Source: Escherichia phage vB_EcoP_PHB20. From it: 38,552 bases of DNA. The translations under genes and the position numbers were made by a program. Of this stretch, positions 6,456 to 38,552 are shown piece by piece (position 1 is the first letter of the stretch; each line of letters begins with the position of its first letter). The notes beneath the pieces are model-generated. The model worked only from the letters and a program-made list of their open reading frames with translations, had not been told where the DNA came from and ran no database searches. The stretch lies in the sequence record MN481366.1; one strand, given 5' to 3'.

Positions 6456-6478
6456 TAATACGACTCACTATAGAGGGA
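6456..6478 (+). promoter_or_regulatory. T7 RNAP promoter phi1.1A, copy 1
   Basis: taatacgactcactatagaggga; +1 G at 6473. Confidence 0.85.
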
Positions 6479-6529: not shown

Positions 6530-6552
6530 TAATACGACTCACTATAGAGGGA
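6530..6552 (+). promoter_or_regulatory. T7 RNAP promoter phi1.1A, copy 2 (duplicated)
   Basis: Identical 23-mer; +1 G at 6547. Confidence 0.85.
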
Positions 6553-6603: not shown

Positions 6604-6626
6604 TAATACGACTCACTATAGGAGAA
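6604..6626 (+). promoter_or_regulatory. T7 RNAP promoter phi1.1B
   Basis: taatacgactcactataggagaa; +1 G at 6621. Confidence 0.85.
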
Positions 6627-7089: not shown

Positions 7090-7112
7090 TAATACGACTC
7101 AGTATAGGGACA
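7090..7112 (+). promoter_or_regulatory. T7 RNAP promoter phi1.3
   Basis: taatacgactcagtatagggaca (characteristic G at -5); +1 G at 7107. Confidence 0.8.
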
Positions 7113-10022: not shown

Positions 10023-10478
10023 GTGGCTGGCGCATACGCTGCGCGTGGTATCCGAAAGGTCGGGACATTCCGTTCCGGCCTAGAAGATAAGGTCTCTAAG
10101 CAGCTAGAGGGTAAGGGCATTAAGTTCGACTATGAACTCTGGAAAATCCCTTACGTTGTCCCTGCGAGCAACCATGTGTATACTCCAGACTTCCTGCTGC
10201 CTAACGGAATCTTCATTGAAACCAAAGGTTTATGGGAGAGTGACGACCGAAAGAAACACTTATTGATTCGCGAACAGTTTCCCGAACTGGACATCCGTCT
10301 GGTGTTCTCAAGCTCGCGCACAAAGCTGTACAAAGGGTCTCCGACCAGTTACGGCGAGTGGTGTGAGAAGCACGGTATCCTGTTTGCTGACAAATTAATT
10401 CCTGTGGAATGGCTCAAAGAACCCAAAAAGGAGGTGCCATTTGACAAGCTGAAACAATCGAAGGGAGGTAAGAAATAA
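10023..10478 (+). CDS. 3: Endonuclease I, Holliday junction resolvase (gp3)
   Basis: 151 aa starting at GTG directly after the 2.5 stop; ...PASNHVYTPDFLLPNGIFIETKGLWESDDRKKHLLIREQ... matches T7 gp3. Confidence 0.9.
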   Translation: MAGAYAARGIRKVGTFRSGLEDKVSKQLEGKGIKFDYELWKIPYVVPASNHVYTPDFLLPNGIFIETKGLWESDDRKKHLLIREQFPELDIRLVFSSSRTKLYKGSPTSYGEWCEKHGILFADKLIPVEWLKEPKKEVPFDKLKQSKGGKK

Positions 10479-10953: not shown

Positions 10954-10985
10954 CCACAACGGTTTCCCTTTGTTCGCATTGTTGA

Positions 10986-12735
<1,750 letters not shown>

Positions 12736-12749
12736 AGGAGGTACACACC

Positions 12750-12962
12750 ATGTTTAAACTGATTAAGAAGTTAGGCCAACTGCTGGTTCGTATGTACAAC
12801 GTGGAAGCTAAGCGTTTGAACGATGAGGCTCGTAAAGAGGCCACACAGTCACGCGCTCTGGCTATTCGCTCCAACGAACTTGCCGACAGTGCATCAACTA
12901 AAGTTACAGAAGCTGCCCGTGTAGCCAACCAAGCTCAACAGCTTTCCAAATTCTTTGAGTAA
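12750..12962 (+). CDS. 4.3: gp4.3 (70 aa)
   Basis: MFKLIKKLGQLLVRMYNVEAKRLNDEARKEATQSRALAIRSNELADSASTKVTEAARVANQAQQLSKFFE; matches T7 gp4.3. Confidence 0.85.
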   Translation: MFKLIKKLGQLLVRMYNVEAKRLNDEARKEATQSRALAIRSNELADSASTKVTEAARVANQAQQLSKFFE

Positions 12963-12981
12963 TAAAACAGGAGAAACCATT

Positions 12982-13251
12982 ATGTCTAACGTAGCTGAAA
13001 CTATCCGTCTATCCGATACCACTGACCAGTGGAACCGTCGAGTCCACATCAACGTTCGCAACGGTAAGGCGACTATGGTTTACCGCTGGAAGGACTCTAA
13101 GTCCTCTAAGAATCACACTCAGCGTATGACGTTGACAGATGAGCAAGCACTGCGTCTGGTCAATGCACTTACCAAAGCTGCCGTGACAGCAATCCATGAA
13201 GCTGGTCGCGTAGATGAAGCTATGGCTATCCTCGACAAGATTGATAGCTAA
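12982..13251 (+). CDS. 4.5: gp4.5 (89 aa; Lon protease inhibitor in T7)
   Basis: Internal ATG of track ORF 12955..13251 after aggaga SD; MSNVAETIRLSDTTDQWNRRVHINVRNGKATMVYRWKD... Confidence 0.85.
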   Translation: MSNVAETIRLSDTTDQWNRRVHINVRNGKATMVYRWKDSKSSKNHTQRMTLTDEQALRLVNALTKAAVTAIHEAGRVDEAMAILDKIDS

Positions 13252-13257
13252 GAGTGG

Positions 13258-13292
13258 TATACTCAAGGTCGCCCAAGTGGTGGCCTTCATGA
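13258..13292 (+). promoter_or_regulatory. RNase III processing hairpin R4.7
   Basis: tatactcaaggtcgcccaagtggtggccttcatg. Confidence 0.55.
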
Positions 13293-13295
13293 ATA

Positions 13296-13318
13296 CTATT
13301 CGACTCACTATAGGAGAT
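13296..13318 (+). promoter_or_regulatory. T7 RNAP promoter phi4.7
   Basis: ctattcgactcactataggagat; +1 G at 13313. Confidence 0.8.
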
Positions 13319-13324
13319 ATTATC

Positions 13325-13732
13325 ACGCGTGACCCTAAAGTTATCCAAGCAGAAATCGCTAAACTGGAAGCTGAACTGGAGGACGTTAAGTACCATGAAG
13401 CTAAGACTCGCTCCGCTGTTCACATCTTGAAGAACTTAGGCTGGACTTGGACAAGACAGACTGGCTGGAAGAAACCAGAAGTTAATAAACTGAGCCACAA
13501 GGTGTTCGATAAGGACACTATGACCCACATCAAGGCTGGTGATTGGGTTAAGGTTGACATGGGAGTTGTTGGTGGATACGGCTATGTCCGCTCAGTGAGT
13601 GGTAAATACGCACAAGTGTCATACATCACAGGTGTTACTCCACGAGGAGCAATCGTTGCTGATAAGACCAACATGATTCACACAGGCTTCTTGACAGTTG
13701 TCTCGTATGAAGAGATTGTTAAGTCACGATAA
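13325..13732 (+). CDS. 4.7: gene 4.7 homolog (135 codons) with ACG at the conserved start position; possibly untranslated or starting downstream at ATG 13520
   Basis: Open frame to 13732 with T7 gp4.7-like sequence; codon at +12 from the phi4.7 start, where T7 has ATG, reads acg; no ATG/GTG/TTG in frame until 13520. Confidence 0.55.
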   Translation, partial: TRDPKVIQAEIAKLEAELEDVKYHEAKTRSAVHILKNLGWTWTRQTGWKKPEVNKLSHKVFDKDTMTHIKAGDWVKVDMGVVGGYGYVRSVSGKYAQVSYITGVTPRGAIVADKTNMIHTGFLTVVSYEEIVKSR

Positions 13733-13750
13733 TCAATAGGAGAAATCAAT

Positions 13751-15865
13751 ATGATCGTTTCTGACATCGAAGCTAACGCCCTCTTAGAGAGCGTCACTAA
13801 GTTCCACTGCGGGGTTATCTACGACTACTCCACCGCTGAGTACGTAAGCTACCGTCCGAGTGGCTTCGGTGCGTATCTGGATGCGCTGGAAGCCGAGGTT
13901 GCACGAGGCGGTCTTATTGTGTTCCACAACGGTCACAAGTATGACGTTCCTGCATTGACCAAACTGGCAAAGCTACAATTGAACCGAGAGTTCCACCTTC
14001 CTCGTGAGAACTGTATCGACACCCTTGTGCTGTCACGTTTGATTCACTCTAACCTGAAAGACACCGATATGGGTCTTCTGCGTTCCGGTAAGTTGCCGGG
14101 GAAACGCTTTGGGTCTCACGCTTTGGAGGCGTGGGGTTATCGCTTAGGCGAAATGAAAGGTGAATACAAGGATGACTTTAAGCGTATGCTTGAAGAGCAA
14201 GGTGAAGAATACGTTGACGGAATGGAATGGTGGAACTTCAACGAAGAGATGATGGACTATAACGTTCAGGACGTTGTGGTCACTAAGGCTCTCCTTGAGA
14301 AGCTGCTCTCTGATAAACATTACTTCCCTCCTGAGATTGACTTTACGGACGTAGGCTACACTACGTTCTGGTCAGAATCCCTTGAGGCCGTTGACGTTGA
14401 ACATCGCGCTGCGTGGCTACTCGCTAAGCAAGAGCGTAATGGGTTCCCGTTTGACACGAAGGCAATCGAGGAGTTGTACGTAGAGTTAGCTGCTCGCCGC
14501 TCTGAGTTGCTCCGCAAATTGACCGAAACGTTCGGCTCGTGGTATCAGCCCAAAGGTGGCACCGAAATGTTCTGCCATCCGAGGACTGGTAAGCCATTAC
14601 CTAAATACCCTCGCATTAAGATACCTAAAGTTGGTGGTATCTTTAAGAAGCCTAAGAACAAGGCACAGCGAGAGGGCCGTGAGCATTGCGAACTGGATAC
14701 CCGTGAGTACGTTGCTGGCGCTCCGTATACTCCAGTTGAGCACGTAGTGTTTAACCCTTCGTCTCGCGACCACATCCAGAAGAAACTCCAAGAGGCTGGA
14801 TGGGTCCCCACGAAGTACACCGATAAGGGTGCGCCTGTGGTGGACGATGAGGTACTCGAAGGAGTACGTGTAGATGACCCTGAGAAGCAAGCTGCAATCG
14901 ACCTCATTAAAGAATACTTGATGATTCAGAAGCGAATCGGACAGTCTGCTGAGGGAGACAAGGCGTGGCTTCGTTACGTTGCTGAGGATGGTAAAATTCA
15001 TGGTTCTGTTAATCCCAACGGCGCTGTTACTGGTCGCGCTACTCACGCTTTCCCTAACCTCGCACAGATACCCGGTGTCCGTTCTCCTTATGGTGATAAG
15101 TGCCGCGCTGCTTTTGGCGCTGAACATCACCTAGACGGTATTACTGGTAAGCCTTGGGTTCAGGCGGGTATCGACGCATCCGGCCTTGAGTTGCGCTGTT
15201 TGGCCCACTTCATGGCTCGCTTTGATAACGGTGAGTATGCTCACGAGATTCTCAACGGTGACATCCACACTAAGAACCAGATTGCTGCCGAATTGCCTAC
15301 CCGTGATAACGCCAAGACGTTCATCTATGGGTTCCTTTATGGCGCTGGTGATGAGAAGATTGGACAGATTGTAGGTGCTGGTAAAGAACGCGGTAAGGAA
15401 CTCAAGAAGAAATTCCTTGAGAACACCCCAGCGATTGCAGCACTCCGTGAGTCTATCCAACAGACACTTGTTGAGTCCTCTCAGTGGGTAGCTGGCGAAC
15501 AGCGAGTCAAGTGGAAACGCCGCTGGATTAAAGGTCTGGATGGTCGTAAGGTACACGTTCGTAGTCCTCACGCCGCATTGAATACCCTACTGCAATCGGC
15601 TGGTGCTCTCATCTGCAAACTGTGGATTATCAAGACCGAAGAGATGCTCGTTGAGAAAGGCTTGAAGCACGGCTGGGATGGGGACTTTGCGTACATGGCA
15701 TGGGTACATGATGAAATCCAAGTAGGCTGCCGTACCGAAGAGATTGCCCAGGTGGTCATTGAGACCGCACAAGAGGCGATGCGCTGGGTGGGAGACCACT
15801 GGAACTTCCGGTGTCTTCTGGATACCGAAGGTAAGATGGGTCCTAACTGGGCCGTATGTCACTGA
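13751..15865 (+). CDS. 5: DNA polymerase (gp5), family A with 3'-5' exonuclease
   Basis: 704 aa; exo motif MIVSDIEAN, polymerase motifs YGFLYGAG and VHDE; near-identical to T7 gp5 as recalled. Confidence 0.98.
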
Positions 15866-15884
15866 TTCTATAGGAGAAATTATT

Positions 15885-16184
15885 ATGGCTATGACAAAGA
15901 AATTTAAAGTGTCCTTCGACGTTACCGCTAAGATGACATCTGACGTTCAGGCAATCTTAGAGAAAGACATGCTACACCTGTGTAAGCAGGTTGGCTCTGG
16001 TGCTATTGTTCCTAACGGTAAACAGAAAGAGATGATTGTCCAGTTCCTGACACACGGCATGGAAGGGCTGATGACATTCGTGGTGCGTATAGCATTCCGT
16101 GAGGCAATCAAGGACATGCACGAAGAGTATGCCGATAAGGACTCCTTCAAACTCTCTCCTGCAACAGTACGGGAGGTGTTCTGA
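15885..16184 (+). CDS. 5.5: gp5.5 (99 aa; H-NS-binding protein in T7)
   Basis: ATG 15885 after taggagaaattatt; MAMTKKFKVSFDVTAKMTSDVQAILEKDMLHLCKQVG...; only 19 nt after the gene 5 stop. Confidence 0.9.
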   Translation: MAMTKKFKVSFDVTAKMTSDVQAILEKDMLHLCKQVGSGAIVPNGKQKEMIVQFLTHGMEGLMTFVVRIAFREAIKDMHEEYADKDSFKLSPATVREVF

Positions 16185-16393
16185 TGTCTGACTATCTGAA
16201 AGTGCTGCAAGCAATCAAAAGTTTCCCTAAGACTTTCCAGTCCAACTATGTACGGAACAATGCGAGCCTCGTAGCGGAGGCCGCTTCCCGTGGTCACATC
16301 TCATGCCTGACTACGAGTGGGCGCAACGGTGGCGCTTGGGAAATTACCGCTTCCGGTACTCGCTTTCTGAAACGAATGGGAGGGTGTGTCTGA
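16184..16393 (+). CDS. 5.7: gp5.7 (69 aa)
   Basis: MSDYLKVLQAIKSFPKTFQSNYVRNNASLVAEAASRGHISCLTTSGRNGGAWEITASGTRFLKRMGGCV; matches T7 gp5.7. Confidence 0.85.
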   Translation: MSDYLKVLQAIKSFPKTFQSNYVRNNASLVAEAASRGHISCLTTSGRNGGAWEITASGTRFLKRMGGCV

Positions 16394-16551
16394 TGGTTCG
16401 TGACACTGTAACAATTCCTCGTGATGCGTGGAACGATATGCAGGGCTACATCGACTCTCTGGAACGTGAGAACGATAGCCTTAAGAATCAACTTATGGAA
16501 GCTGACGAATACGTAGCTGAGCTAGAGGAGAAACTTAATGGCACTTCTTGA
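16393..16551 (+). CDS. 5.9: gp5.9 (52 aa; RecBCD inhibitor in T7)
   Basis: ATG 16393 overlapping the 5.7 stop; MVRDTVTIPRDAWNDMQGYIDSLERENDSLKNQLMEADEYVAELEEKLNGTS. Confidence 0.8.
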   Translation: MVRDTVTIPRDAWNDMQGYIDSLERENDSLKNQLMEADEYVAELEEKLNGTS

Positions 16552-17440
16552 CCTTAAACAATTCTACGAGTTACGCGAAGGTTGTGACGACAAGGGTATC
16601 CTAGTGATGGATGGTGACTGGCTGGTCTTCCAAGCGATGAGTGCTGCTGAGTTTGATGCCTCATGGGAGGAAGAGATTTGGCACCGCTGCTGTGACCACG
16701 CTAAGGCCCGTCAGATTCTTGAGGATTCCATCAAGTCCTATGAGACCCGTAAGAAGGCTTGGGTAGGTGCTCCGATTGTCCTTGCGTTCACCGATAGCGT
16801 TAACTGGCGCAAAGAACTGGTTGACCCGAACTACAAGGCTAACCGTAAGGCAACGAAGAAACCTGTAGGTTACTTTGAGTTCCTTGATGCACTATTTGAG
16901 CGAGAAGAGTTCTACTGCATCCGTGAGCCTATGCTTGAGGGTGATGACGTTATGGGAGTTATTGCTTCCAATCCGTCTGCATTCGGTGCTCGTAAGGCTG
17001 TAATCATCTCGTGCGATAAGGACTTTAAGACCATCCCTAACTGCGACTTCCTCTGGTGTACCACTGGTAACATCCTGACTCAGACCGAAGAGTCCGCTGA
17101 CTGGTGGCACCTCTTCCAGACCATCAAGGGTGACATTACCGATGGTTACTCAGGGATTGCCGGATGGGGCGATACAGCCGAGGACTTCTTGAATAACCCG
17201 TTCATAACCGAGCCTAAAACGTCTGTGCTTAAGTCTGGAAAGAACAAAGGCCAAGAGGTCACCAAGTGGGTTAAACGTGCCCCTGAGCCTCATGAGACGC
17301 TTTGGGACTGCATTAAGTCCATCGGTGCGAAGGCTGGTATGACCGAAGAGGATGTTATCAAGCAGGCACAGATGGCTCGCATCCTACGGTTCAATGAGTA
17401 CAACTTTATTGACAAGGAGATTTACCTGTGGAGGCCGTAG
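16538..17440 (+). CDS. 6: 5'-3' exonuclease (gp6)
   Basis: 300 aa MALLDLKQFYELREGCDDKGILVMDGDWLVFQ...; near-identical to T7 gp6 as recalled. Confidence 0.95.
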   Translation: MALLDLKQFYELREGCDDKGILVMDGDWLVFQAMSAAEFDASWEEEIWHRCCDHAKARQILEDSIKSYETRKKAWVGAPIVLAFTDSVNWRKELVDPNYKANRKATKKPVGYFEFLDALFEREEFYCIREPMLEGDDVMGVIASNPSAFGARKAVIISCDKDFKTIPNCDFLWCTTGNILTQTEESADWWHLFQTIKGDITDGYSGIAGWGDTAEDFLNNPFITEPKTSVLKSGKNKGQEVTKWVKRAPEPHETLWDCIKSIGAKAGMTEEDVIKQAQMARILRFNEYNFIDKEIYLWRP

Positions 17441-18879: not shown

Positions 18880-18893
18880 ACAGGAGGTGACAC

Positions 18894-20504
18894 ATGGCTG
18901 AGAAGCGTACAGGTCTAGCCGAGGAAGGTGCAAAGTCCGTTTATGACCGATTGAAGAACGACCGCGCTCCTTATGAGACTCGTGCTCAAAACTGCGCTCA
19001 GTACACCATTCCGTCCCTCTTCCCTAAGGAATCCGATAACTCATCCACAGACTACACGACTCCGTGGCAAGCTGTGGGTGCTCGCGGTCTCAATAACTTG
19101 GCCTCTAAGCTCATGTTGGCGCTCTTCCCGATGCAAACGTGGATGAAGCTGACCATCTCTGAGTATGAGGCAAAACAGTTACTGAATGACCCCGATGGAC
19201 TCGCTAAGGTTGATGAGGGTCTATCGATGGTAGAGCGTATCATCATGAACTACATTGAGTCTAACAGTTACCGAGTAACTCTCTTTGAGGCTCTCAAGCA
19301 GTTAGTCGTAGCTGGTAACGTTCTTCTGTATCTACCGGAACCAGAAGGGTCAAACTACAATCCCATGAAGCTGTACCGATTGTCTTCTTATGTGGTCCAA
19401 CGAGACGCATTCGGCAACGTTCTGCAAATGGTGACTCGTGACCAGATAGCTTTTGGTGCTCTCCCTGAGGACATCCGTAAGGCTGTAGAAGGTCAAGGTG
19501 GTGAGAAGAAACCTGATGAGACCATCGACGTGTACACTCACATCTATCTGGATGAGGACAAAGGTGAATACCTCCGGTACGAAGAGGTCGAGGGCATGGA
19601 GGTCCAAGGCTCAGATGGGTCTTACCCTAAAGAGGCTTGCCCATACATCCCGATTCGCATGGTTCGACTGGATGGTGAATCCTATGGTCGTTCGTACATT
19701 GAGGAATACTTAGGCGACTTACGGTCACTTGAGAATCTCCAAGAGGCTATCGTTAAGATGTCAATGATTAGCTCTAAGGTTATCGGCTTAGTGAATCCTG
19801 CTGGTATCACCCAGCCACGCCGACTGACCAAAGCCCAGACTGGTGACTTTGTTACTGGTCGCCCAGAAGACATCTCGTTCCTCCAACTGGAGAAGCAAGC
19901 AGACTTTACGGTAGCCAAGGCTGTCAGTGACGCTATTGAGGCTCGACTTTCGTTTGCCTTTATGTTGAACTCTGCGGTTCAGCGCACAGGTGAACGTGTG
20001 ACCGCCGAAGAGATTCGGTATGTAGCTTCTGAACTTGAAGATACTTTAGGTGGTGTCTACTCAATCCTTTCTCAAGAATTACAATTGCCTCTGGTGCGAG
20101 TGCTCTTGAAGCAACTGCAAGCCACGCAACAGATTCCTGAGTTACCTAAGGAAGCCGTAGAGCCAACCATTAGTACAGGTCTGGAAGCAATTGGTCGAGG
20201 GCAAGACCTTGATAAGCTGGAACGGTGTGTCACTGCGTGGGCTGCGCTGGCTCCCATGCGCGATGACCCTGACATCAACCTTGCAATTATTAAGTTGCGC
20301 ATTGCGAACGCTATCGGTATTGACACTTCTGGTATCCTTCTTACCGAAGAACAGAAGCAACAGAAGATGGCTCAACAGGCTATGCAAATGGGTATGGATA
20401 ACGGTGCTGCTGCGCTTGGTCAAGATATGGCTGCACAGGCTACAGCTTCTCCTGAGGCTATGGCTGCTGCCGCTGATTCCGTAGGTTTACAGACGGGCAT
20501 TTAA
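18894..20504 (+). CDS. 8: Portal / head-tail connector protein (gp8)
   Basis: 536 aa, same length as T7 gp8; aggaggtgacacATG SD. Confidence 0.98.
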   Translation: MAEKRTGLAEEGAKSVYDRLKNDRAPYETRAQNCAQYTIPSLFPKESDNSSTDYTTPWQAVGARGLNNLASKLMLALFPMQTWMKLTISEYEAKQLLNDPDGLAKVDEGLSMVERIIMNYIESNSYRVTLFEALKQLVVAGNVLLYLPEPEGSNYNPMKLYRLSSYVVQRDAFGNVLQMVTRDQIAFGALPEDIRKAVEGQGGEKKPDETIDVYTHIYLDEDKGEYLRYEEVEGMEVQGSDGSYPKEACPYIPIRMVRLDGESYGRSYIEEYLGDLRSLENLQEAIVKMSMISSKVIGLVNPAGITQPRRLTKAQTGDFVTGRPEDISFLQLEKQADFTVAKAVSDAIEARLSFAFMLNSAVQRTGERVTAEEIRYVASELEDTLGGVYSILSQELQLPLVRVLLKQLQATQQIPELPKEAVEPTISTGLEAIGRGQDLDKLERCVTAWAALAPMRDDPDINLAIIKLRIANAIGIDTSGILLTEEQKQQKMAQQAMQMGMDNGAAALGQDMAAQATASPEAMAAAADSVGLQTGI

Positions 20505-33272: not shown

Positions 33273-35237
33273 ATGGCTAACGTAATTAAAACCGTTTTGA
33301 CTTACCAGTTAGATGGCTCCACTCGTGATTTTAATATCCCGTTTGAGTATCTAGCCCGTAAGTTCGTAGTGGTAACTCTTATTGGTGTAGACCGTAAGGT
33401 CCTTACGCTTAATACAGACTATCGCTTTGCTACACGTACTACCATCTCACTGACTAAGGCTTGGGGTCCATCCGATGGCTACACGACCATTGTGTTACGC
33501 CGAGTAACCTCCACGACCGACCGCTTGGTTGACTTTACGGACGGCTCAATCCTCCGTGCGTATGACCTTAACGTTGCTCAGATTCAAACGATGCACGTAG
33601 CGGAGGAGGCGCGCGACCTGACTGCTGATACAATCGGTGTCAATAATGACGGTCACTTGGATGCCCGTGGTCGTAAGATTGTTAACTTGGCGTATGCCAC
33701 AGGTGACTATGATGCCGTCCCTTTAAAGCAGGTTAAAGAGCGTGAAACCTCTGCGTGGAATGCCGCAACAAAAGCTAACGAACACGCTGACCGTTCTAAT
33801 AGGGAAGCAAACCGTTCCCGTGATGAGGCCAATCGCGCTCAACGTGAAGCTGACCGCTCAACGCAACAGGCAGATGTCTCTAAGCAACAGGCAGTTGAGT
33901 CCAAGAAGCAAGCTGACCGCTCAGACGCTGAGGCTGACAGAGCTAAAGGTTATGTTGATAGCATGATCGCAAGTGTCGCTGAGGCCGAGAAGCAAGCTGA
34001 CCGTGCCGACTCTGAGGCAAATCGTGCCCGTGATGAGGCCGATCGTGCTGCCGGAGAAGTGACTAAAGCTGCTGCTGAGGTTGCCAAGGCTGCTGCACAT
34101 GTTGAGACCGCTAAGGGACATGCTGATAGGGCTAACACTGAGGCAAACCGCTCCAAAGGTGAGGCTGACCGTGCTAAGTCTGAGGCAGACAAGCTGGGGA
34201 ATATGAACAGCTTAGCTGGGGCTATTGACAGGGTTGAGGATCTTGATGTTTACTTCAAGCGCAAGGTGTCAGGTAAGGACTTTACGTTGCGGAATGATGC
34301 AAAGGGCGCTGATACTAAACCAGTTGAATTAGTATGGACCCAGTGGCGTGGAGAGGGAAGCAAGGAGACCGTATGGGAACAGTGGATTCAGGCTGGTCCA
34401 AAACGCATGGACTACTATACGTTCATCAATACAGACCCTGCCACATGGCCTGACGGACGATCTAATAGTAAAGGAAAACACACATTTTTTGGAGATGTTT
34501 TATTGGCTGGTGGGAACGTGGAAATGCACGGCAACCTTAAGGTTAATGCAGTCGAGTCTAAAAATACCGTTTCCCTTACAAATGAGGGTGCCAGCTTTAG
34601 GGCAAAAACACAAGGCGGCGGATGGAGCCAGTGGACAGGAAGTCTATCTCCAGACGTGCAGCACGATATTGCAGGGCAGGGGGATATAAACTATCTCCTT
34701 GAGCGAGCGACGATTTGGGGTAAAGAGCACCTGTATGCTAAGTGCTTATACAACAATGGAACAGGCGTTAACTTCTTTATCAGACATTATCTCCGTGGGA
34801 CTCACTTCGACTACAGGAGCGATGGTACTCTTCTCAGCTCGACTGGTTGGTATATTCCACCAGATGGCAACCTGTACATCAAAAAGTACAACGAGTATAT
34901 TGATGCGTGGGTCAACAAACGCCTTGATGAACACGCCTATAACAAAAGTACCGCCGATGGTCTCTATATCCGCAAGAATGCTGGGTGGAGTGAAGTGTGG
35001 AAAGGAAGAGTTGGTGGTGGTGTATCCGTATCTCTATCTCAAGATGTTCGTTGGAGAACCATCTGGATTCAGACCAACGATCACTGGAACCCGATAGAGA
35101 TTGGGGACGATGGTGCCTACTTTCTTTCCTCTATGGGTGGGTGGATTACATTCACTATCTCCAACGGCGGGAGAACCTTCAAGAATGACAGAGATGAGAA
35201 ATCTGTACCAACTAGCATTCTGGTGCGTAACAACTAA
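33273..35237 (+). CDS. 17: Tail fiber protein gp17, long mosaic form (654 aa)
   Basis: N-terminal ~150 aa MANVIKTVLTYQLDGSTRDFNIPFEYLARKFVVVTLIGVDRK... is T7-like; then a repetitive EANRxRDEADRA coiled-coil; C-terminal ~300 aa differs from T7 except the last ~60 aa. Confidence 0.95.
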   Translation: MANVIKTVLTYQLDGSTRDFNIPFEYLARKFVVVTLIGVDRKVLTLNTDYRFATRTTISLTKAWGPSDGYTTIVLRRVTSTTDRLVDFTDGSILRAYDLNVAQIQTMHVAEEARDLTADTIGVNNDGHLDARGRKIVNLAYATGDYDAVPLKQVKERETSAWNAATKANEHADRSNREANRSRDEANRAQREADRSTQQADVSKQQAVESKKQADRSDAEADRAKGYVDSMIASVAEAEKQADRADSEANRARDEADRAAGEVTKAAAEVAKAAAHVETAKGHADRANTEANRSKGEADRAKSEADKLGNMNSLAGAIDRVEDLDVYFKRKVSGKDFTLRNDAKGADTKPVELVWTQWRGEGSKETVWEQWIQAGPKRMDYYTFINTDPATWPDGRSNSKGKHTFFGDVLLAGGNVEMHGNLKVNAVESKNTVSLTNEGASFRAKTQGGGWSQWTGSLSPDVQHDIAGQGDINYLLERATIWGKEHLYAKCLYNNGTGVNFFIRHYLRGTHFDYRSDGTLLSSTGWYIPPDGNLYIKKYNEYIDAWVNKRLDEHAYNKSTADGLYIRKNAGWSEVWKGRVGGGVSVSLSQDVRWRTIWIQTNDHWNPIEIGDDGAYFLSSMGGWITFTISNGGRTFKNDRDEKSVPTSILVRNN

Positions 35238-35284
35238 GGGATGACCAATAGTCCACGGATGGACTCTTTGAGGGAGGACGCTAC

Positions 35285-36306: not shown

Positions 36307-38067
36307 GTGTCTACTCAATCCAATCGTAATTTGCTCGTTGTGGCGCAACTAAAGGGCGACTTCGTGGCGTTCCTGTTCGTCTTATGGAAGGCGTTAAACC
36401 TTCCGGTGCCCACTAAGTGTCAGATTGACATGGCTAAGGTGCTGGAGAATGGAGACAACAAGAAGTTCATCCTACAGGCTTTCCGTGGTATCGGTAAGTC
36501 GTTCATCACATGTGCGTTCGTTGTGTGGTCCTTATGGAGAGACCCACAGTTGAAGATACTCATTGTATCAGCCTCTAAAGAACGTGCAGACGCTAACTCC
36601 ATCTTCATTAAGAACATCATTGACCTGCTCCCATTCCTTGCTGAGCTAAAGCCAAGACCCGGACAGCGCGACTCTGTAATCAGCTTTGATGTTGGTCCTG
36701 CCAGTCCTGACCACTCGCCTAGTGTGAAATCAGTAGGTATCACTGGTCAGTTAACTGGTAGTCGTGCTGATATTATCATTGCGGATGACGTTGAGATTCC
36801 GTCTAACAGTGCTACTATGGGTGCCCGTGAGAAGCTATGGACTCTGGTTCAGGAGTTCGCTGCGTTACTTAAGCCGCTGCCTACTTCTCGTGTTATCTAC
36901 CTTGGTACACCTCAAACTGAGATGACTCTCTATAAGGAACTGGAGGATAACCGTGGGTACACCACTATCATCTGGCCTGCTCTGTACCCAAGGACTCGTG
37001 AGGAGAATCTTTACTATGCCCAACGTCTTGCCCCAATGCTCCGTGCGGAGTACGAGGAGAATCCTGAGGCTCTGGCTGGTACTCCTACAGACCCTGTTCG
37101 ATTCGACAGAGATGACCTACGTGAGCGTGAGTTGGAATACGGTAAGGCTGGCTTTACGCTACAGTTTATGCTTAACCCGAACCTGAGTGATGCCGAGAAG
37201 TACCCTCTGAGGCTCCGTGACGCTATCGTAGCGGCCTTAGACTTAGAGAAGGCACCGATGCATTACCAGTGGCTTCCGAACCGTCAGAACATCATTGAGG
37301 ACCTTCCTAACGTGGGCCTTAAGGGTGATGACCTGCACACCTACCACGAGTGCTCGAATAACTCTGGTCAGTATCAACAGAAGATTCTGGTCATTGACCC
37401 TAGTGGTCGCGGTAAGGACGAAACAGGTTACGCGGTGCTGTACACCCTCAATGGTTACATCTACCTAATGGAAGCTGGAGGTTTCCGTGACGGTTACTCC
37501 GATAAGACCCTTGAGTTGCTCGCTAAGAAAGCTAAGCAATGGGGAGTCCAGACGGTCGTCTACGAGAGTAACTTCGGTGATGGTATGTTTGGTAAGGTAT
37601 TCAGTCCTATCCTTCTTAAACACCACAACTGTGCTATGGAAGAGATTCGTGCTCGTGGTATGAAGGAGATGCGTATTTGTGATACCCTTGAGCCAGTCAT
37701 GCAGACTCACCGCCTTGTCATTCGTGATGAGGTCATTAGGGCAGACTACCAGTCCGCTCGTGACGTAGACGGTAAGCATGACGTTAAGTATTCACTGTTC
37801 TACCAGATGACCCGCATCACTCGTGAGAAAGGTGCTCTGGCTCATGATGACCGCTTGGATGCTCTTGCGTTAGGCGTTGAGTATCTCCGTGAGTCCATGC
37901 AGTTGGATTCCGTTAAGGTCGAGGGTGAAGTGCTTGCTGACTTCCTTGAGGAGCACATGATGCGTCCTACGGTTGCCGCTACGCATATCATTGAGATGTC
38001 TGTAGGAGGAGTTGATGTGTACTCTGAGGACGATGAGGGTTACGGTACGTCTTTCATTGAGTGGTGA
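36307..38067 (+). CDS. 19: Terminase large subunit (gp19)
   Basis: 586 aa, GTG start after taaggaggtaat; Walker A-like AFRGIGKS; near-identical to T7 gp19 as recalled. Confidence 0.98.
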
Positions 38068-38104
38068 TTTATGAGGCCAAGGAAGGCCACTTTAAGGAGG
38101 TAAT

Positions 38105-38548
38105 ATGATAAACAAGAAGAAGTATGTTGTTGATAAGGAGACTGGTTGCTGGAACTTTAAGGGATGTAAGACGAAGACTGGTTATGGTCGTATCCGTGTG
38201 AATGGTGTCCATTGGATGGCCCACAGGTATTCCCTGAGTTGTCATCTAGGCAGACCGATAGCTGACGGAATGGTTGTGATGCACCTGTGTGATAACCCTT
38301 CGTGTGTTAACCCTGAGCACCTTAAGGAAGGGACCCAGAAGGAAAACATAGAGGACTGCATCTCAAAGGGTCGCGCAACTAAGGCCACAGGTAAACGTGA
38401 TGCGTCGAAGAGAGACCCTAGCGAGGAACGTAAGGCTATAGTGATTCGTAGATACCATAAAGGCTGGAACGCAACGTCCATAGCGAGATACCATAAGCTC
38501 TCTGTGGCGTGGGTCAAGAGGGTCATTGAGGAGTACCTAAGTGATTGA
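38105..38548 (+). CDS. HNH-family homing endonuclease-like protein (147 aa), not at this position in T7
   Basis: Motif ETGCWNFKG..GYGRIRVNGVHWMAHR...VVMHLCDNPSCVNPEHLKEGTQKEN typical of phage HNH endonucleases, plus C-terminal HTH-like AIVIRRYHKGWNATSIARYHKLSVAWVKRV; SD taaggaggtaatATG; rare AGA/AGG/ATA/CTA codons. Confidence 0.85.
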   Translation: MINKKKYVVDKETGCWNFKGCKTKTGYGRIRVNGVHWMAHRYSLSCHLGRPIADGMVVMHLCDNPSCVNPEHLKEGTQKENIEDCISKGRATKATGKRDASKRDPSEERKAIVIRRYHKGWNATSIARYHKLSVAWVKRVIEEYLSD

Positions 38549-38552
38549 TATT

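Follow-up and report, generated by a model that had tools for sequence, protein, structure and literature searches.

Why do the DNA polymerase gene (gene 5) and gene 5.5 lie nearly side by side in this T7-like genome, when T7 has a further small gene at the same place? We asked whether the short junction is peculiar to this phage or is the ordinary state of the locus, what occupies the boundary in other phages, and what the bases flanking it may say about the elements that are found there. Positions refer to the window, that is, the whole 38,552-nt stretch of DNA that was analysed.

The Gene 5/5.5 Junction

Direct reading of the sequence placed 19 nt between the stop codon of gene 5 (TGA at 15863–15865, the open reading frame ending TGT CAC TGA) and the start codon of gene 5.5 (ATG at 15885–15887, reading ATG GCT ATG ACA), in agreement with the preliminary description of this DNA, which had the two genes separated by only this distance (Table 1). 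Because the gap is an exact statement of coordinates, chance is irrelevant to it. The gene 5.5 product was assigned to PHROG 1452 (“Gp5.5-like host HNS inhibition”), and its family is described as an H-NS-binding protein.

Table 1. Features at and near the gene 5/5.5 junction of the window.
Feature	Position	Strand	Basis
Gene 5, family A DNA polymerase, 704 aa	13751..15865	+	ORF list; Pfam DNA_pol_A, E 2e-47
Empty intron-insertion site in gene 5, codons V-H|D-E, polymerase motif C	15709..15710	+	blastn break
Last four codons and stop of gene 5, GCC GTA TGT CAC TGA (A-V-C-H-stop)	15851..15865	+	
Intergenic spacer TTCTATAGGAGAAATTATT, unoccupied insertion site	15866..15884	+	Sequence; T7 comparison; blastn break point
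Shine-Dalgarno sequence AGGAG of gene 5.5	15872..15876	+	Sequence; 8 nt 5' of ATG
Gene 5.5, 99 aa, T7 gp5.5 family	15885..16184	+	Pfam Phage_T7_55, E 5e-66, full length

Comparison With T7

The same flanking genes are present in T7 (V01146, NC_001604) at approximately 94% identity, and the ribosome-binding site and start of gene 5.5 (CTATAGGAGAAATTATTATGGCTATGACAAAG) are identical in the two phages. The interval between genes 5 and 5.5 in T7, however, is 383 nt, of which gene 5.3 accounts for 357 nt, with 15 nt of gap before it and 11 nt after it; the V01146 coordinates are 16467 for the end of gene 5, 16483–16839 for gene 5.3 and 16851 for the start of gene 5.5. The preliminary description had held that the same 19-nt spacing in T7 would speak against it; since the T7 interval is 383 nt, that objection falls away. 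Its statement that in T7 a small gene, 5.3, separates the polymerase gene from gene 5.5 and that this gene is missing here was likewise borne out.

Whole-genome blastn gave an exact boundary for this indel, with 1 nt at 15866/15868 of the window corresponding to 365 nt at 16468/16834 of T7. The boundary had been set by eye and was confirmed by blastn, whereas a MAFFT alignment of the window and T7 misplaced the gap inside gene 5.5. The single base T15867 thus stands opposite 365 nt of T7 that comprise a Shine-Dalgarno sequence of their own (AGGAGG) and the 118-aa gene 5.3, both of which are absent from the window. T7 carries a self-contained 365-bp cassette at this position, the stop codon of which abuts the ribosome-binding site of gene 5.5.

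Family and Dispensability of gp5.3

The missing gene had been described beforehand as HNH-like, a designation which our profile searches contradict. PDDEXK_5 (PF11645) was the only Pfam family above threshold for T7 gp5.3 (E 1.1e-10; 42.1 bits versus a cutoff of 26.1), and no HNH profile matched the protein at E up to 1. The gp5.3 homologues of PA45-9 and PJNS034 scored 40.3 and 34.2 bits, respectively, with PDDEXK_5, while HNH_3 matches were obtained for T7 gp2.8, gp3.8 and gp7.7 and for T3 gp5.3. Four residues (E12, D37, Q50, and K52) are invariant in seven gp5.3 homologues that are 38–79% identical.

Among solved structures, T7 gp5.3 matched 2OST best, an entry deposited under the name “Putative endonuclease,” and the D...QVK motif falls within the alignment. 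We take 2OST to be I-Ssp6803I, an intron-encoded PD-(D/E)XK homing endonuclease; in this comparison, which is one of sequences, D37 and Q50-x-K52 of gp5.3 align with its DLV and KVQVK. I-Ssp6803I is encoded within a cyanobacterial tRNA-fMet group I intron, whereas genes of the 5.3 type are free-standing and lie immediately 3' of phage family A polymerase genes. Taken together, these results identify T7 gene 5.3 as a predicted PD-(D/E)XK endonuclease of the I-Ssp6803I type and not an HNH endonuclease, which corrects a common assumption about its family. The gene is dispensable, as T7 clones engineered without it exist and mutants with disrupted gp5.3 overtook serial-transfer populations (PMC9825161).

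Occupancy of the Junction Among Relatives

Phage vB_EcoP_IME390 (NC_048082 / MH779619) is 100.0% identical to the window over positions 868–25000 and 15300–16500, so that its locus is indistinguishable from the one described here; its record differs in length (38396 nt) and in the start point within the genome. The IME390 annotation places DNA polymerase I at 12896–15010 and, after 19 nt, a gp5.5 homologue at 15030–15329. The sequence TTCTATAGGAGAAATTATT is identical in 10 other loci, namely those of IME390, 13a, AH67C600_Q5, EFA-2 and the IMG/VR contigs L004–L006 and L009–L011, and the same 19-nt spacer is also found in 3A_8767, CICC 80001 and numerous contigs of viral origin.

A spacer of 15–21 nt was present in 52 of the 57 IMG/VR viral contigs that share the polymerase 3' end. 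Contigs were counted only where the polymerase C-terminal context was present, pattern scans having also given many chance matches in unrelated contigs, and two of the counted loci, which have short downstream sequence, were classified from the spacer sequence alone. The short layout with nothing but a Shine-Dalgarno sequence also occurs in named phages of four genera, and 15–21 nt is the rule in other Studiervirinae genera. Of 50,697 phage records, on the other hand, only 100 had a T7-type gene 5.3; for 57 of these, nearly all labelled as T7 laboratory strains, the identity was at least 95%. Given this predominance of short spacers and the rarity of gene 5.3, the near-contiguity of genes 5 and 5.5 is not special. 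The earlier reading of the junction as an endonuclease-free allele beside an essential gene thus stands insofar as the allele is one without gene 5.3, but not insofar as it was taken for a special allele, since it is the default among relatives. The 19-nt gap is ordinary and was already known, being the annotated gene order of the deposited phage IME390 and the default in the subfamily.

When the junction is occupied, its content varies. In five Studiervirinae genera, homologues of gene 5.3 follow the polymerase gene directly on its 3' side, with close relatives that are without them; the same holds for their position in two phages whose records give no Studiervirinae classification. Differences of this kind between close relatives have already been described for gene 5.3 among phages related to phiYeO3-12 (PMC4925675). 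A PD-(D/E)XK gene stands at the junction in T7, 64795_ec1, KP32, Kvp1 and others, an HNH endonuclease gene in T3, and small ORFs in NC-A and some Klebsiella phage contigs; the ORFs among the other occupants are of 76/75, 53, and 63 aa. Across Studiervirinae, the gene 5/5.5 boundary is a hotspot at which insertions recur. It has at least five occupants that are unrelated to one another, and most genomes leave it empty; selfish endonuclease genes, and small ORFs of other kinds, have repeatedly landed there.

Insertion or Loss

We consider it very probable that the 19-nt interval is the ordinary unoccupied gene 5/5.5 junction of a T7-like phage, with T7 bearing an extra cassette at a boundary that acts as a hotspot; T7 is the unusual one, because an extra, dispensable gene sits at its junction. 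The direction of the event, that is, insertion in T7 as opposed to loss in the IME390 lineage, was inferred from the distribution of the two states rather than from a rooted phylogeny. The empty state would accordingly be the ancestral one, and the occupied states would have arisen by insertion, probably through endonuclease-driven homing. The same pattern would be left by an empty allele replacing an occupied one by recombination in a mixed infection.

It is very unlikely that the IME390 lineage instead descends from a 5.3-bearing, T7-like ancestor through a precise deletion, with the 19-nt spacer as the scar. No classical relative is closer than T7 (93.6% identity), and loss of a dispensable gene such as 5.3 can be favoured in culture. 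In addition, T7 gene 5.3 ends, stop codon included, in the same CTATAGGAG that follows T15867 in the window, so that a deletion ending there is conceivable. However, the last polymerase codons of the window are GCC GTA TGT CAC, whereas those of T7 are GCG ATT TGC CAC; the GTA TGT CAC ending is of the empty-allele type, and a simple deletion would have kept ATT TGC CAC. Moreover, an engineered T7 deletion has a 51-nt junction that begins with T7's own TGATACAGGAGGCTACTC and left a 45-nt scar, the same 19-nt spacer is shared by many independent phages, and an ATT TGC CAY ending next to an empty junction was seen in none of the contigs within the Teseptimavirus or Przondovirus range.

Content of the Spacer

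Upstream of gene 5.5, AGGAGAAATTATTATG is identical in T7, T3, 64795_ec1 and 13a, regardless of the sequence that precedes it. Judged from its bases, the sole recognisable function of the 19-nt spacer is the predicted initiation of gene 5.5 translation via AGGAG.

That the conservation of the spacer reflects not simply this ribosome-binding site but an extra element (a phage promoter, an RNase III site or a terminator) seems to us highly improbable. Two features would suit such an element: the spacer does not differ by a single base among phages whose flanking genes are ~92–95% identical, and CTATAGGAGA is similar to the -5 to +6 part of the T7 promoter (CTATAGGGAGA). Yet the promoter specificity region is missing from the spacer, where only 2 of 13 positions match by eye from -17 to -5, and in T7 the stretch from gene 5 to gene 5.5 is annotated with neither a promoter nor an RNase III site. 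A search for T7-type promoters with at most 3 mismatches gave none in the spacer and 11 matches elsewhere, the nearest at 7090 and 17562, although a very weak phage promoter would escape this search because only 3 mismatches were allowed. CTATAGGAGA was not among these matches, and its reading as a promoter was rejected. No terminator-like site (a stem with a T-run) was found in the spacer, and the 80-nt RNA fold at the spacer had a z-score of -0.01, which is no better than that of shuffled sequence; a reading as RNA structure was rejected as well. Rfam searches at gathering thresholds returned no matches for the window or for the insert of AH67C600_Q5 considered below.

A Candidate Target for gp5.3

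The 3' codons of the polymerase gene differ with the state of the junction. Empty alleles end TGT CAC TAA/TGA and 5.3-bearing alleles end TGC CAT TGA, a synonymous difference which holds in four genera (Teseptimavirus, Przondovirus, Berlinvirus, and Kayfunavirus); variants among the occupied alleles are CAC for CAT in T7 and TAA for TGA in 64795_ec1. Whereas gene 5.3 was carried by none of 57 contigs ending GTA TGT CAY, it was present in 4 of 5 ending ATT TGC CAY (Fisher p = 9e-6, phylogeny not corrected for). There are two exceptions, as Emajogi has gene 5.3 and yet ends TGT CAC TGA, while contig L044 ends ATT TGC CAT without gene 5.3. The junction fits the pattern of a homing locus, in which an endonuclease gene is sporadically present at a fixed position by a conserved gene and flanking differences travel with it.

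On this basis, positions 15851–15884 may represent the site that the T7 gp5.3-type enzyme naturally recognises or homes to; this enzyme would then be a free-standing homing endonuclease directed at the extreme 3' end of family A polymerase genes. We offer this tentatively, as something a little short of an even chance. T7 DNA polymerase needs its C-terminal His for function, and the 3' end of the gene would consequently be a well-conserved target. Were gp5.3 to home in this manner, the changes from TGT CAC TAA to TGC CAT TGA would be marks of self-immunity or co-conversion, and a mixed infection of IME390 and T7 would be expected to convert the locus, more often than under Mendelian inheritance, to the form that carries gene 5.3. 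If the association between the codons and gene 5.3 holds, it provides a candidate, testable target for an uncharacterised T7 protein, with IME390 as a natural “empty” recipient.

The Intron Site in Gene 5 and Other Endonucleases

A second selfish element is known from gene 5, namely the PhiI/W31-type group I intron with its HNH endonuclease (13a, AH67C600_Q5, T7M), the site of which precedes the polymerase stop codon by 156 nt. This insert is absent from gene 5 of the window, where the sequence is continuous across 15709|15710. Exactly at this position, 13a, AH67C600_Q5 and contig L009 have a 601-nt insert with an HNH ORF (HNH_3, E 6.6e-17), and blastn of the window against contigs L016, L003 and L009 breaks at query 410/411, which corresponds to window 15709/15710. 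Gene 5 of 13a is annotated as a two-piece join with an internal “endonuclease”; we take the intron label of the insert from this annotation and from the literature, since no Rfam group I model reached threshold in AH67C600_Q5. In the intron-bearing 13a and AH67C600_Q5, the gene 5/5.5 junction is empty and has the same 19 nt that it has in the window.

The gene called 5.3 in T3 occupies the same position as T7 gene 5.3, between the polymerase stop and AGGAGAAATTATTATG of gene 5.5, but the two products are unrelated, and the window has neither gene. T3 gp5.3 is an HNH_3 protein (E 4.6e-19) that shares 48% identity with the ORF encoded in the 13a intron. Bonocora and Shub, in 2009, reportedly described T3 gene 5.3 as F-TslI, an HNH homing endonuclease of the free-standing kind; it cuts polymerase genes that have no intron, at the position where the intron would insert. 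Gene 5 of the window would be a potential F-TslI substrate, because it is intronless at that site. Free-standing endonucleases that target intron-insertion sites have been described in a review (PMC3984707). As to the genome at large, the view that it is wholly endonuclease-free was rejected, as the window has an HNH_3 ORF of its own at 38105–38548.

The gene 5-gene 5.5 junction

The gap of only 19 nt that the preliminary description placed between gene 5 and gene 5.5 proved exact, coordinates included, when read from the sequence. Gene 5 encodes a family A DNA polymerase (Pfam, E 2e-47) and gene 5.5 a full-length T7 gene 5.5 protein (Pfam, E 5e-66), with homologues of genes 5.7, 5.9 and 6 (Pfam) following downstream.

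Features of the window at the junction and at sites of endonuclease genes
Feature	Position	Length	Detail
T7 gene 2.8 (HNH_3) absent	10026-10047	20 nt	417 nt in T7
T7 gene 3.8 (HNH_3) absent	10981-11178	196 nt	528 nt in T7
Gene 5 ORF	13751-15865	704 aa	ends GCC GTA TGT CAC TGA; stop at 15863-15865
Empty intron-insertion site	15709/15710		between V-H and D-E codons of polymerase motif C
Spacer	15866-15884	19 nt	TTCTATAGGAGAAATTATT
Shine-Dalgarno AGGAG	15872-15876		8 nt before gene 5.5 ATG
Gene 5.5	starts 15885		begins ATG GCT ATG ACA
T7 gene 7.7 (HNH_3) absent	18888-18894	5 nt	396 nt in T7
ORF with HNH_3	38105-38548 (+)	147 aa	Pfam HNH_3 (E 9e-9) and C-terminal HTH_23

The sole evident function of the spacer is that of gene 5.5 ribosome-binding site, and no element besides the AGGAG was detectable in it. 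It contains none of the 11 matches to the T7-type promoter consensus (up to three mismatches), the nearest being at 7090 and 17562, and no terminator-like site; the single sigma-70-like match, on the minus strand, equals chance expectation. The computed fold of an 80-nt RNA across the junction is no more stable than that of shuffled sequence (z -0.01), and Rfam gave no match there.

The T7 coordinates are 16467 for the end of gene 5, 16483-16839 for gene 5.3 and 16851 for the start of gene 5.5; T7 therefore lacks the 19-nt spacing, and the original observation stands. Aligned by eye, the window reads TGAT-T-CTATAGGAGAAATTATTATG and T7 reads TGAT-ACAGGAGGCTACTC-ATG...(gene 5.3)...AAAA-CTATAGGAGAAATTATTATG, so that 365 nt in T7 replace the single window base T15867; whole-genome blastn breaks at the same place (window 15866/15868 versus T7 16468/16834). 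The extra T7 segment is a complete cassette, with its own Shine-Dalgarno and ORF; at its 3' end, gene 5.3 runs with its last codons and stop (CTA TAG) into the ribosome-binding site of gene 5.5.

Distribution of the empty junction

Enterobacteria phage vB_EcoP_IME390 (Teseptimavirus IME390) is 100.0% identical to the window over 15300-16500, as it is over 24 kb of the first 25 kb, and its record annotates DNA polymerase I, then 19 nt, then a gp5.5 homologue; the arrangement is therefore already public. The identical spacer, behind TAA as well as TGA stops, occurs in 13a, AH67C600_Q5, EFA-2, IME390 and six IMG/VR contigs, among them the 3A_8767 and CICC 80001 genomes, with 16-17-nt versions in two further contigs. 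The equivalent spacer is 18 nt long in Przondovirus phages of Klebsiella and 19 nt in Yersinia phage Berlin, while in K1F the two genes abut. When IMG/VR was scanned with the polymerase ending of the window (TGGGCN GTA TGT CAY TRA), counting only contigs with polymerase context, 52 of 57 had spacers of 15-21 nt and none of the 57 carried a T7-type gene 5.3. A tblastn search with T7 gp5.3 matched only 100 of 50,697 phage records, 57 of them at 95% identity or more and, among those listed, nearly all T7 and its laboratory derivatives. Because the empty layout (no gene between the polymerase stop and gene 5.5) is widespread and T7-type 5.3 is rare, near-contiguity is the default and T7 the exception; the window carries an ordinary empty allele that had been annotated before.

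Gene 5.3 of T7 and T3

The preliminary description correctly placed gene 5.3 of T7 between genes 5 and 5.5, but its characterization as HNH-like has to be replaced: the sole significant Pfam family of T7 gp5.3 is PDDEXK_5 (PF11645; 42.1 bits, cutoff 26.1), in contrast to HNH_3 in T7 gp2.8, gp3.8 and gp7.7 and in T3 gp5.3. Its top solved-structure match is 2OST, deposited as 'Putative endonuclease' (I-Ssp6803I), in which DLV and KVQVK align with D37 and Q50-V-K52 of gp5.3. E12, D37, Q50 and K52 are invariant in seven homologues (38-79% identical to T7 gp5.3); in PHROGs the family (phrog_5018) has no assigned function.

The polymerase gene of the window is continuous and intronless at the site where 601 nt containing a 131-aa HNH ORF are inserted in 13a, AH67C600_Q5 and database contig L009; the insert of AH67C600_Q5 gave no group I intron match in Rfam. 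T3 gp5.3 is 48% identical to the endonuclease from the 13a insert. T3 gp5.3 is F-TslI, reported by Bonocora and Shub in 2009 as a free-standing homing endonuclease that cleaves polymerase genes lacking the intron, at the place where the intron inserts. This kind of 'collaborative homing' has been set out in general terms in a review (PMC3984707). T7 can do without its gene 5.3, and mutants with a disrupted gp5.3 rose to dominance under serial transfer (PMC9825161).

An insertion hotspot behind the polymerase gene

The junction is a hotspot: from the polymerase stop codon to the ribosome-binding site of gene 5.5, five unrelated occupants were observed, namely the PD-(D/E)XK gene (T7, 64795_ec1, KP32, KpV767, KP13MC5-2, Kvp1, YZ1, ST37 and Emajogi), the T3 HNH gene, a 76- or 75-aa ORF that lacks annotation (phage NC-A and one IMG/VR contig, L014; phrog_18049), a 53-aa ORF in Klebsiella-phage-like contigs (phrog_20928) and, in a further contig of this kind, a 63-aa ORF. 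Every occupant read at the junction (T7, 64795_ec1, T3, NC-A, L014) has its own Shine-Dalgarno and extends as far as the ribosome-binding site of gene 5.5. A PD-(D/E)XK gene also lies directly 3' of a family A polymerase gene in PJNS034 (65.7 kb) and PA45-9 (44.5 kb), whose records give no classification in Studiervirinae, the subfamily of the T7-like phages; such placement suggests a specific link to polymerase genes.

The 76/75-aa ORF, whose protein begins MATWKYRIVELEYTDG, fills the 265/259-nt 'intergenic' gap of NC-A (L017, 1067-1331) and L014 (2742-3000); it matches phrog_18049 (E 9e-26), a family without an assigned function, and nothing in Pfam. The 53- and 63-aa occupants were found in IMG/VR contigs similar to Klebsiella phages (L067, L106, L128, L100); the former begins MKTYSEQEVKDLMY, and the latter (MVIDKTLADEV...) has no PHROG match. 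The Kayfunavirus 5.3 homologues of YZ1 (L022, 886-1215; not annotated) and ST37 (L026, about 883-1257; partly annotated) begin immediately at the stop codon of the polymerase gene and have neither an in-frame ATG, GTG or TTG nor a Shine-Dalgarno (in-frame reading ...GCC ATT GAC GGA AAG...); they could be decaying copies, initiate at ATT or require recoding.

The last polymerase codons vary with occupancy. Empty alleles end TGT CAC TAA/TGA in Teseptimavirus and TGT CAC TAA in Przondovirus, Berlinvirus (Berlin) and Kayfunavirus (K1F); with the PD-(D/E)XK gene the endings are TGC CAC TGA (T7) and TGC CAT TAA (64795_ec1) in Teseptimavirus, and TGC CAT TGA in Przondovirus, Berlinvirus (Kvp1) and Kayfunavirus (YZ1, ST37). 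All of these are synonymous differences. One codon earlier, Teseptimavirus and Przondovirus additionally switch from GTA (Val) to ATT (Ile), and beyond these ~12 nt the upstream polymerase sequence follows its own genus. In IMG/VR, the PD-(D/E)XK gene is present in 4 of 5 contigs ending ATT TGC CAY versus 0 of 57 ending GTA TGT CAY (Fisher's exact p = 9e-6, relatedness ignored and two genera only). Exceptions are Emajogi, which has the gene together with TGT CAC TGA, and a distant contig (L044), which has ATT TGC CAT without it. Such a codon pattern is as expected if the polymerase 3' end were part of the endonuclease target or co-conversion tract, and this candidate target site of a T7 gp5.3-type endonuclease is the one lead worth an experiment.

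Comparison of these sequences favours insertion into an ancestrally empty junction, because the distribution is patchy, the occupants are diverse and the empty layout is common to several genera. Simple deletion of gene 5.3 in a T7-like ancestor is improbable: the polymerase gene of the window ends GTA TGT CAC, typical of empty alleles, whereas that of T7 ends ATT TGC CAC, and an engineered T7 deletion retains T7 sequence (TGATACAGGAGGCTACTC) directly after the polymerase stop, plus a 45-nt scar. Replacement of an occupied allele through recombination with an empty phage is possible. The closely related Citrobacter phages SH1 and SH2 are reported to differ in whether they have a gene 5.3 homing endonuclease (PMC4925675).

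Endonuclease genes and other features of the genome

The junction had been described as 'another' endonuclease-free allele; genes 2.8, 3.8, 5.3 and 7.7 are all missing relative to T7. The genome as a whole is nevertheless not endonuclease-free, since it encodes the 147-aa HNH_3 ORF, which shares 45% identity with T7 gp7.7 and 38% with T7 gp2.8; this ORF lies 38 nt past the large terminase gene (36307-38067), at a position where T7 has no gene. The window likewise lacks, or has diverged versions of, T7 gene 1.4 and part of gene 1.7.

Three matches to the T7-type promoter follow each other at 74-nt intervals (6456-6478, 6530-6552 and 6604-6626), where T7 has two promoters (phi1.1A and phi1.1B) 75 nt apart; the blastn alignments to T7 overlap at this place, which would fit a single additional repeat unit. 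The order of the window is permuted relative to T7 (1-900 and 38074-38552): the T7 right end (39366-39897) aligns to 142-675 and the left end (1-265) to 555-812, overlapping by about 120 nt in the window, as a terminal repeat would predict. In the tail-fibre (gene 17) region, ~1.6 kb (33674-35249) without a megablast-level T7 match, opposite a T7 gap of 1285 nt, probably encodes a different receptor-binding domain. The host label of 'Enterococcus phage EFA-2' (MT350293), recorded as an Enterococcus faecalis phage, looks doubtful; its genome is ~92% identical to this coliphage region and shares the 19-nt junction, with 115 nt extra between its genes 5.5 and 5.7.
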